A stretch of DNA of 64,000 nucleotides. Origin: Eledone cirrhosa (Eukaryota). Of this stretch, positions 26,601 to 29,600 are shown piece after piece. A model generated the notes under the pieces. The model did no database searches. It saw only the letters and a program-made list of their open reading frames with translations, and was not told where the DNA came from. The position numbers and the translations under genes are program-made. Position 1 is the first letter of the stretch. Every line of letters starts with the position of its first letter. The stretch spans positions 7,874,001 through 7,938,000 of the forward strand of contig OZ024762.1 of the NCBI GenBank assembly GCA_964016885.1. Reading direction: 5' to 3'.

Positions 26601-29600
26601 ATATATATATATATATGTGTATATATATACATATCATATATATATATACATATATATATGAGTGTGTATATATATATATAATCGTTGGACTTTAAACGAT
26701 GATGATGTTAAGTAAGTTAATTTTATAATTTTCTTATTTTACGTCTCTTATATTATTGTTCTGCAACCCCATGCATTGAACCACACTGTTATTAAGTCAA
26801 AACCTATATATTTGCTAGCATTGATATGCATCTGTATGTATATATATGTTACTAGATATGAATTCTTTATTATTATCTCCAAATTATTTGTCGAGCAATA
26901 TTGGCCATGACTGCTGCTACGGTTGTAGGCAGGCCGCTGTCTTATTAGCAAACCACTCTCCACTGATTGACCTCGATGTCACGTGTTAGATTCTTTTTAA
27001 ATTTGCCACAGATGTAGAGGCAGTGATTTTCTCAATGGCTTGGAATTCAGTCCACGCTCCGCTATTTCCTATCCACTGAATTATTTTTTAATAAGTTTCC
27101 AGTGTCCTCGCTTTGCCTGGAAACTTACATGAGAATAGACTTTCCTGACGACGGAATGCTTCTCTATATTATTCTTCGGAAAATATATTTATTCCATTCC
27201 AGAAACTAATTAGTTGGAAGTGATATTTTAGTAAGTAAGTTAATTTTATAATTTTCTTATTTTACGTCTCTTATATATATATATATATATATATATATAT
27301 CATCATCACCGTTTTACGTCCGTTCTTCCACGCTAGCATGGGTTAGACGGGTTGTCCTGTTGTGGGCAGTGTCTGGTCGGCTGACCATGCCTTGCTCATA
27401 CAGGAACTGATCTGGCTTGATTTCTACAGCTGGATGCCCTTCCTAACACCAACCTCATTTACAGTGAGTGCTGGGTGCTTTTTCGTGGCGCCTACACGTC
27501 CACTTTACAGTGTGGGCTGGGTGCTTTTTTGCCGTGGCACCTCCACGACCACCTTGCGGTGGGGGGGGGGGGGGGCATATTGTTTATATGCTTCAGCATG
27601 TACCCATGGGAGGTCGGGTACCCTGTATTACTGCGTGACGCCAGAAGTCACGGTCGTGTGTCATTGACTTTGAGAGGTGTAGTTGGGTAAGGTCGGCTTT
27701 TATCACCTCATCCCAAGTCATCTTGGGTCTCCCCACTCCGCGGTTTCCATCAACTTCTAGTGCTCTGCACCTTTTTATGCAGCTGTCATCCTTCATACGC
27801 ATCACATGTCCATACCAGCGTAACCGCCTCTCCTGCACGCAGCATTTGATTCCTCTTATGCTCAGTCTCTCTCTCAATTCATTTATGCTTTGTCATAAAT
27901 GAATTGATTTATATATATATATATATATATATATATATATATATATATATATATATATATACACACATACATACATATATACACACACGTAGATACATGC
28001 ATATACCATATATACTTGAATATGAGCTAATCTGAATATAAGCCGGCACCTTGTCTGAAAATGAGGAAAAATCCAAACCCTGTTTAAGAGCTGAGGCAGT
28101 TAACATTATGTTTAGATGGCGTGGCTTTGAAATTCTCATGAGTATAAAATATGTGTTCGTGTGTGGAGGGAGATATTTATGTATTAAAAAGTTCAAATTA
28201 TAAAAGTTTGTTGAAAATATTTTCAAGGGAATGCATAAATAACACTAATGACTATGTAGTTGAAAAACTGTTTCACTGTAAAATAATCACTACAGATGTT
28301 TTAGCACCTTATTTAAGTAGTTAGTGAAAATCGACAAAATATTTAACTCGAATATAAGCTGGCCCCATTTCAACATTGATCTTTTTTTTTTTTGGTATCA
28401 CATATTTTCCAGCTTATATATAAGTATATATGGTATCATCATCATCATTTCATTTTACGTCAGCTTTTTCTCTGCTTGCAAGGGTGGGACGGTAACTGAT
28501 TCTGGCTTGATTTCTACAGCTGGATGCCCTTCCTCACACCAACCTCATTTGCAGTGAATGCTGGGTGATTTTTTGCCATGGCACCTCCACGACCTCTTTG
28601 CAGTGGAATGATAGGGACCCCAATCCCTATCATCTCATTTCTACAGCTGAGTAAACTGGAGCAATGTGAAATAAAGTGTCTTGCTCAAGGAAACAACACA
28701 CCATCGCTCTGAGAATTGAACTCACAACCTTTCGATTGCAAGGCCAATGCTTTAACCACTAAGCCATGTGCCTCCATATAAACAGATATCTTGTTCTTCG
28801 CCCACTTATTCCTGAGAGGGTCATGAGGGCAGAGTCCTCAAACATTCCCTTCAGTGGGGCCTGTCAGAAGCAACTGTCTCCAACTGAGCTGGCTGGATTC
28901 CCAAGCAAGACGAGCCAAGCTCATGAATGTTATCCAACCATCTTGCTCAGGGTCTACCCCTGGGTCCTGCCAGTTGGGTTTGTCTGTAAAATCTGACCAG
29001 TTATTCTTTCCTGAGACATTCTAACCACATTCCCATAGTATCGGAGCTGTGATCTCTCAATTCAAAGAGTAACAGCTCTACCTGGAGTGACTCACTGAAC
29101 TACACACTTTATTGAGTAACATTACTCCAAAGACCCTTCAGATGAACCCCATTTTGGTCTTGCTCATATAGATCTGTTTCTGGCTAGATTTCTACAGCTG
29201 GATGCTCTTCCTAATGCCAACCACATTTCCAGTGTGGGCTGGGTTCTTTTTGTTGTGCCACCTACATGACCACTTTACAGTGTGGGCTGGGTGCTTTTTG
29301 TTGTGCCACCTACATGACCACTTTACAGTGTGGGCTGGGTGTTTTTTGTTGTGCCACCTACATGACCACTTTACAGTGTGGGCTGGGTGATTTTTGTTGT
29401 GCCACCTACATGACCACTTTACAGTGTGGGCTGGGTGCTTTTTGTTGTGCCACCTACATGACCACTTTACAGTGTGGGCTGGGTGCTTTTTGTTGTGCCA
29501 CCTACATGACCACTTTACAGTGTGGGCTGGGTGCTTTTTGTCATGACACCTACACAACCACTTTACAGTGTGGGCTAGGTGCATTTTCTTGTGACACCTA

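Follow-up and report, generated by a model that had tools for sequence, protein, structure and literature searches.

The locus considered here raises the question of how two identical 45-nt stretches, separated by non-coding sequence that holds a hammerhead ribozyme motif, came to lie 523 nt apart in an apparent intron of Eledone cirrhosa. The window, that is, the whole 64,000-nucleotide stretch of DNA that was analysed, carries the two copies at 26709-26753 and 27232-27276, which are 100% identical; the first-pass annotation had taken them for the overlap of a retrozyme-like insertion, a monomer extended by 45 nt whose start lies just beyond the ribozyme cut site, and had read that overlap as the footprint of reverse transcription slightly more than once around a circular RNA. 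Its description of the site stands in several respects. The repeat and its spacing are as reported, the insertion lacks a convincing reading frame (the ATG ORFs overlapping it are just three, 26-47 aa long), and exon-like frames on the - strand flank it on both sides, one with AG/GT ends at about 26256-26557 (by eye) and a second at 29696-29980, so that the ribozyme lies antisense within an intron, as had been proposed. The host gene, perhaps a p160 coactivator to judge from its Q/S/P-rich exons with LxxLL motifs, was searched against Pfam through 58 translated stretches, which returned nothing informative apart from transposase fragments, namely PiggyBac-type pieces (PF13843) at 24754-25377 and 58131-58544. 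A sigma-70 promoter scan of the window stayed at chance level, under a model that is irrelevant to this genome.

The insertion itself (26709..27276, + strand) is one-armed and measures 568 nt, or 1.09 units of a 523-nt hammerhead repeat, with ~98% identity to dispersed copies. Its 5' partial unit is the first 45-nt repeat (26709..26753), truncated 16 nt past the expected upstream cut site, and its 3' portion is the second repeat (27232..27276), which terminates at a fixed end of the family, end A, 61 nt past the cut. Between them, a 'tail' of ~120 nt (26754..26876, + strand) extends from A to a second fixed end, B, which is internal in the window copy (26873-26876). The exact last bases of end A are ambiguous in this copy, where they merge into a (TA)14 microsatellite (27272..27300, no strand assigned), the putative target; arms of the family run into (TA)n. 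By eye, (GAT)n-tailed repeat ends in opposite orientations bracket the insertion (26681-26708; 27300 onward). Assembled contigs covering 26700-27270 show only repeat collapse in X1 and X2, and X4 contributes two low-depth contigs that are unclassified, one of them terminating at site B.

The meaning of the 45-nt overlap becomes apparent from the remaining copies. A search of the 3.0 Gb genome with the unit produced 2,867 candidates, 40 of which were scored, all at 97-100% identity, and the 27-nt ribozyme core has 2,208 exact matches genome-wide against 0 for the reversed control, a count that exceeds that of insertions because some contain several cores; the family is young. BLAST with the monomer, the check that the annotation had proposed, reveals tandem and permuted copies elsewhere in the genome. 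Arrays within the family reach about four units with a period of 523, subfamilies at 76-95% identity retain a period of 522-543 nt, and a search with a sister subfamily uncovered further non-coding arrays. With unit positions numbered from 26709, A corresponds to position 45 and B to 165-168, ~184 nt past the cut. In loci picked by their ribozyme, without regard to ends, 29 of 68 arms stop at A and 32 at B, 61 in all, and (TA)n directly follows such an end in 59 of the 68; exact ends followed by TA amount to 215 for A and 164 for B, and a TA run is found at the 5' side too in 32 of 39 one-armed copies. A-arm lengths range from 39 to 1644 nt in end-anchored loci (median 292; ~300 nt for arms overall), and more than one unit is spanned by 19 of the 74 A arms and by 31 of the 100 B arms, the first 30 loci, biased by query, having been kept out of the end statistics unless also end-anchored. 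A weaker cluster of 5' ends, noticed post hoc just upstream of the ribozyme at unit positions 412-427 (12 versus 5.9 expected), is possibly a transcription start.

Since end A is fixed and the 5' ends are widely spread over the unit, the 45-nt overlap is merely the truncation point of the window copy and not a trait of the family, and the reading of a monomer plus 45 nt as the footprint of a circle finds no support. The same observations bear on another idea, in which a 478-nt insert of unrelated origin is flanked by a target-site or local duplication. A single locus taken by itself does have that look, but the 45-nt sequence belongs to the unit itself, terminates at least 215 insertions with unrelated flanks, and is preceded in other copies by sequence that extends upstream through the ribozyme; a duplication is thereby excluded, in agreement with the original interpretation.

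The ribozyme is a type I minimal hammerhead (27139..27221, + strand) lying outside the 45-nt repeat and predicted to cut after 27215, which leaves 16 nt to the start of the second copy. A motif scan places stem I at 27139-44/27216-21, the core CTGACGA at 27145-27151, stem II at 27153-58/27195-200, GAAA at 27202-27205 and a palindromic stem III at 27206-27213, all on the + strand, and stem II is capped by an apical hairpin with a UUCG loop (27165..27187, + strand) in which 5 of 9 pairs display compensatory changes. In 33 variant copies, 92.6% of cells are paired under the named structure, compared with 33-47% for slid-structure controls on the same copies; 9 of 24 pairs are altered on both sides, and covariation reaches 0.215 versus 0.123 after shuffling, with 0 of 500 shuffles as high (related rows inflate the control). 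The invariance of the core in these copies is by construction, because the search pattern fixed core and stem III. None of the 88 Rfam matches at E<=1 is a hammerhead, the isolated motif folds no better than shuffles (z 0.01), and the fold of the whole unit (z -2.5) says little on circularity. As far as genomic copies can speak for the RNA, the compensatory changes show selection acting on its fold, thereby bearing out the earlier description of a well-formed hammerhead. Just past the cut, at 27219-27240, a run ending in TTTTAG is followed by two overlapping GTAAGT splice-donor-like hexamers (by eye); Penelope-like elements (PLEs) carry introns near their pseudo-LTRs (pLTRs).

The architecture of this ribozyme is that of the minimal hammerheads of PLEs as presented in the available text of PMC4209133, which are marked by a long stem II, an unpaired base before stem II and a palindromic stem III, the latter thought to require a second copy. 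The active retrozyme of bioRxiv 10.64898/2026.07.22.740005, in the part consulted, is defined by at least two consecutive ribozymes, an arrangement found in other copies of the family, unlike the window copy with its one. Carrying one ribozyme only, and that in antisense to the intron, the window copy would be unable to release unit-length RNA alone, and it is probably inert.

A more telling property of the family is the way in which its arms are combined. From the first 100 matches listed per end, 143 distinct end-anchored loci were collected on contigs C1-C5, 80 of them two-armed, with arms back to back, and 63 one-armed like the window copy. The two-armed loci comprise 62 A+B pairs, a single B+B and no A+A, the other 17 having one end broken or cut off; head-to-head pairs taken from coordinate lists were likewise A+B in 31 of 31. 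Overlaps at the arm junctions are mostly 0-3 nt. Rare alleles are shared at ~0.001 per nt between passes of one insertion and at 0.00002 between loci, and L250 carries one rare allele in all four of its passes. This roughly fiftyfold excess fits a single template per insertion, even if gene conversion or uniform source arrays could also give such sharing. LINE-1 twin priming, in which two primers at one target break yield an inverted 5' part, differs from the present case, where priming begins at two fixed sites and the arms have much of their sequence in common. Spread at the DNA level, be it satellite amplification, extrachromosomal circles or repair capture with the hammerhead as a passenger, could draw on the three-unit arrays L017, L030, L035 and L306, where the alleles are distributed as later unequal crossover, or an error of assembly, would leave them; against this, a directional copier is needed to account for 3' ends that are fixed and strand-specific, for 5' ends that vary and for the pairing of A with B, and the compensatory changes reflect selection on an RNA fold, so that we regard this route as very unlikely. 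In the window, another family contributes back-to-back hammerhead-like motifs at 39819-39867 (-) and 39996-40044 (+), which probably constitute a two-armed insertion.

The directional copier is likely to have been a PLE reverse transcriptase-endonuclease, a view that combines the family's A+B pairing with the plan of the RT+GIY-YIG elements of this genome and with published PLE features. In the available text of PMC8557442, PLEs are described as forming partial tandems, carrying a 5' copy in inverted orientation and a tail on one side, and inserting at TA targets; an anole PLE is reported to initiate at two internal sites, to nick both strands and to have a protein predicted to dimerise (PMC11167929, consulted in part). 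The 523-nt family accordingly resembles endonuclease-positive PLEs (PMC4209133, PMC8557442, PMC11167929, as far as these were available). It shows partial tandems with 5' truncation and a fixed 3' end; an inverted 5'-truncated copy with the tail at one end, the window copy itself being devoid of an inverted arm; and insertion into an AT-rich microsatellite target, (TA)n, with no clear target-site duplication. As in PLE pLTRs, in the portions of these sources consulted, a minimal ribozyme lies shortly upstream of the 3' ends, the tail being ~120 nt in this family compared with the usual 30-40 nt of PLEs.

In the RT+GIY-YIG elements of the genome, too, a hammerhead is followed by two alternative TA-flanked ends, at 14 or 143 nt in some and at about 121 or 177-183 nt in others, and in L121, which is two-armed, one arm has the short end and the other the long one. 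Unlike autonomous PLEs, the 523-nt unit has no ORF for RT plus GIY-YIG. A GIY-YIG search returned 10,596 candidates, 150 of which were scored and 36 loci inspected; among these 36 no autonomous PLE sharing the unit was seen and no sequence link from the unit to such an element emerged, L108 carrying the unit as an unrelated inserted copy. Several of the inspected loci (L111:2452-7438, L112, L116, L120, L124) belong to a young Neptune-like PLE family whose proteins are ~97% identical; it has a single open frame of 938 aa, its hammerhead is a U3-A8 variant and its tail measures ~129 nt, and by age alone it is a candidate helper. L114, L119 and L121 belong to another PLE family, whose hammerhead is minimal and whose two ends lie ~55-60 nt apart, and other tandem hammerhead repeats occur near PLE ORFs at L112:6700-7228 and L123:7568-8592, with periods of ~459 and 483-511 nt.

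One might suppose instead that the window copy is a solo pLTR left by a 5'-truncated autonomous PLE. Its layout does match a PLE pLTR plus tail, and the available part of bioRxiv 10.64898/2026.07.22.740005 proposes that animal non-LTR retrozymes derived from PLE pLTRs; long arms, however, run into further 523-nt units, up to about four, none is seen entering an ORF in alignments of 202 distinct loci (which covered the alignments rather than an ORF scan of the flanks), and sister families at 76-87% identity keep the 522-543-nt period, which makes this origin improbable in our judgement. The family is best read, on the strength of its genomic copies, as a non-autonomous PLE derivative of the animal non-LTR retrozyme kind. 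A published parallel is the Chlamydomonas element MRC1, a non-autonomous PLE that is likewise non-coding, forms pLTRs and inserts head to tail (PMC8557442); in the available text of that paper, MRC1-type elements resemble their own helpers at the 3' end, a resemblance not seen between the 523-nt unit and the 36 loci inspected, and the Chlamys/Naiad group is without canonical hammerheads.

Under the PLE reading, tandem copies would be transcribed and cut by paired hammerheads, a dimer of the PLE protein would nick both strands of a TA tract, and two cDNAs would be primed on one RNA, one at A and one at B, each extending back through the ribozyme site to end at a variable point before the two were joined head to head via 0-3 nt of microhomology. 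In the window copy the A-primed cDNA alone would have survived, after 568 nt. We are thus fairly confident that the window copy is a 5'-truncated, one-armed, non-coding hammerhead repeat inserted by a PLE into (TA)n, probably from a re-ligated circle. The hammerhead retroelement of the retrozyme kind that the first-pass annotation had recognised is upheld; that annotation had overlooked end B, the arms in inverted orientation, the preference for (TA)n targets and the connection with Penelope.

The form of the template is where the evidence divides most. Of the 74 A arms 63 cross the cut site, as do 68 of the 100 B arms (15 A and 12 B arms cross it twice), which indicates that most templates were either re-ligated or uncut. 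A re-ligated circle would explain how more-than-unit copies are regenerated; circular RNAs have been shown for coral, mussel and axolotl retrozymes (PMC7229834), and a circle template has been proposed for hammerhead repeats and PLEs (PMC4209133, PMC7229834, all in the portions available). We would give a re-ligated RNA circle roughly an even chance of having been the template. The competing account keeps the same PLE enzyme and priming sites and replaces the circle with a linear tandem transcript, uncut or cut at some ribozymes; for the window copy, the RNA would have been cut at the upstream ribozyme only, the downstream one staying uncut, and the enzyme would have run off the 5' end.

Stops within 16 nt past the cut, a window picked as adjoining the predicted site, number 14 versus 7.5 expected (p 0.02; 164 arms, with four duplicate-looking loci and one secondary fragment dropped), or 18 versus 7.9, the top window of the unit, if duplicates are kept; both arms stop just past the cut in 3 of 42 two-armed insertions (Fisher p 0.015), and the window copy begins 16 nt past the site. 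As a ligated circle offers no stop, such ends point, if anything, to a cut linear 5' end, and their excess in the genomic sequences suggests that some templates were cut linear RNA. On the other hand, a 36-nt window abolishes the excess (19 versus 15.4), unit positions 1-20, where the window copy starts, have none (5 versus 7.9), and an ATAT palindrome at unit positions 515-518 could draw junctions there. Successive A-arm units have 1 rare allele in common in 5,270 nt, compared with 6 in 4,389 nt for B arms, so that A0-A1 sharing is below what one circle would suggest, as a linear template would have it, whereas L015 and L250 share alleles across all their passes. A test of same-unit versus different-unit alleles, which gave p 0.09 (78 loci) and p 0.30 (153 loci), fails to tell a circle from a linear template, and is confounded because the coincidence of units depends on the source arm.

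The published record also cuts in favour of linear RNA, inasmuch as minimal hammerheads cut weakly (PMC4209133), uncut RNA was the main substrate of the anole PLE in vitro (PMC11167929) and 8 of 9 Xenopus retrozyme dimers were without cleavage in vitro (bioRxiv 10.64898/2026.07.22.740005), each source being available in part; a linear template would nonetheless need an extra step to regenerate more-than-unit length. An uncut or partly cut linear multimer strikes us as a template whose chances fall somewhat short of even, and the linear account taken whole, enzyme and priming sites included, as a serious contender that we would still not back.

A further peculiarity of the family is a hypermutated CTA triplet at the base of the apical hairpin (27164..27166, + strand; unit positions 456-458), which is intact in the window copy. 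Among end-anchored loci only 35 of 141 passes keep it intact, and only 4 of 31 do so in a set from which loci chosen on the site were excluded, the background being 0.9% per site; the variants are mostly single substitutions of nearly all possible types. Passes of one insertion agree at the triplet in 27 of 62 A0-A1, A0-B0 and B0-B1 comparisons, a count that includes CTA-selected loci, where chance would give ~14%. The same site is variable in a subfamily with a different hairpin (11 of 26 intact), and a sister family with CCG at the triplet is stable (34 of 36, in a similarity-selected sample). Decay of CpG is out as a cause, the site not being a CpG, as is avoidance of stop codons, given that alleles making TAA and TGA exist; simple ageing was also set aside, as the intact fraction runs 10/50, 15/50 and 12/51 by divergence tercile, albeit in a weak test. 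Candidate causes are a sequence-specific lesion during copying and nicking by the element's endonuclease. It is conceivable, if rather doubtful, that the family preserves a fossil record of the whole PLE-retrozyme cycle, with two-site dimer priming, mostly circles, about a tenth of templates cut and linear, and a CTA lesion arising about once per lineage and then stopping; if so, the cut linear templates would be genomic evidence that PLE-type minimal hammerheads cut in vivo.

Set beside metazoan non-LTR retrozymes as they appear in the available portions of Cervera and de la Pena 2020 (PMC7229834) and of Li, Clavereau and Pollet 2026 (bioRxiv 10.64898/2026.07.22.740005), the family agrees in its tandem unit, which is non-coding, rich in AT and equipped with a single type I hammerhead, in its dispersed monomers and short multimers, and in the presence of PLEs in the same genome, and its 523 nt fall inside the 51-972 nt range of retrozyme units given in the latter. 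It departs from them in that its ribozyme is of the PLE 'minimal' type, with long stem II and palindromic stem III, rather than canonical, and in that its arrays, known here from genomic sequence alone, are short and often inverted; its fixed A and B ends have no counterpart in the same portions of either source. Plant LTR retrozymes do not fit, as the motif is of type I and there are no LTRs with a type III hammerhead and a 4-bp target-site duplication. A literature search that covered few subscription papers and left Repbase aside found nothing on cephalopod retrozymes or strict A+B pairing. Taken alone, the window locus is an intronic repeat of an ordinary, truncated kind; what matters is the family, which bears on the way in which more-than-unit and inverted insertions of hammerhead repeats and PLEs arise. 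A young, high-copy unit with mapped A and B starts affords exact predictions for assays of priming, cleavage and circle junctions, and the three-base hotspot is a feature for specialist follow-up.

The hammerhead at 5661..5749 (- strand), which the annotation had assigned to the same family, comes rather from a sister family that is distinct and older, and whose A-type end motif is similar. Of its 316 candidates, most scored copies are 65-88% identical, with five near-copies at 92-94%; its local alignment score with the 523-nt family is 53, against a shuffled maximum of 46, and BLAST between the two yields TA-rich scraps only, the ribozyme plan and the A-end motif being what they have in common. 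Other families are represented in the window by hammerhead-like motifs at 8839-8894 (+) and 6369-6418 (-).
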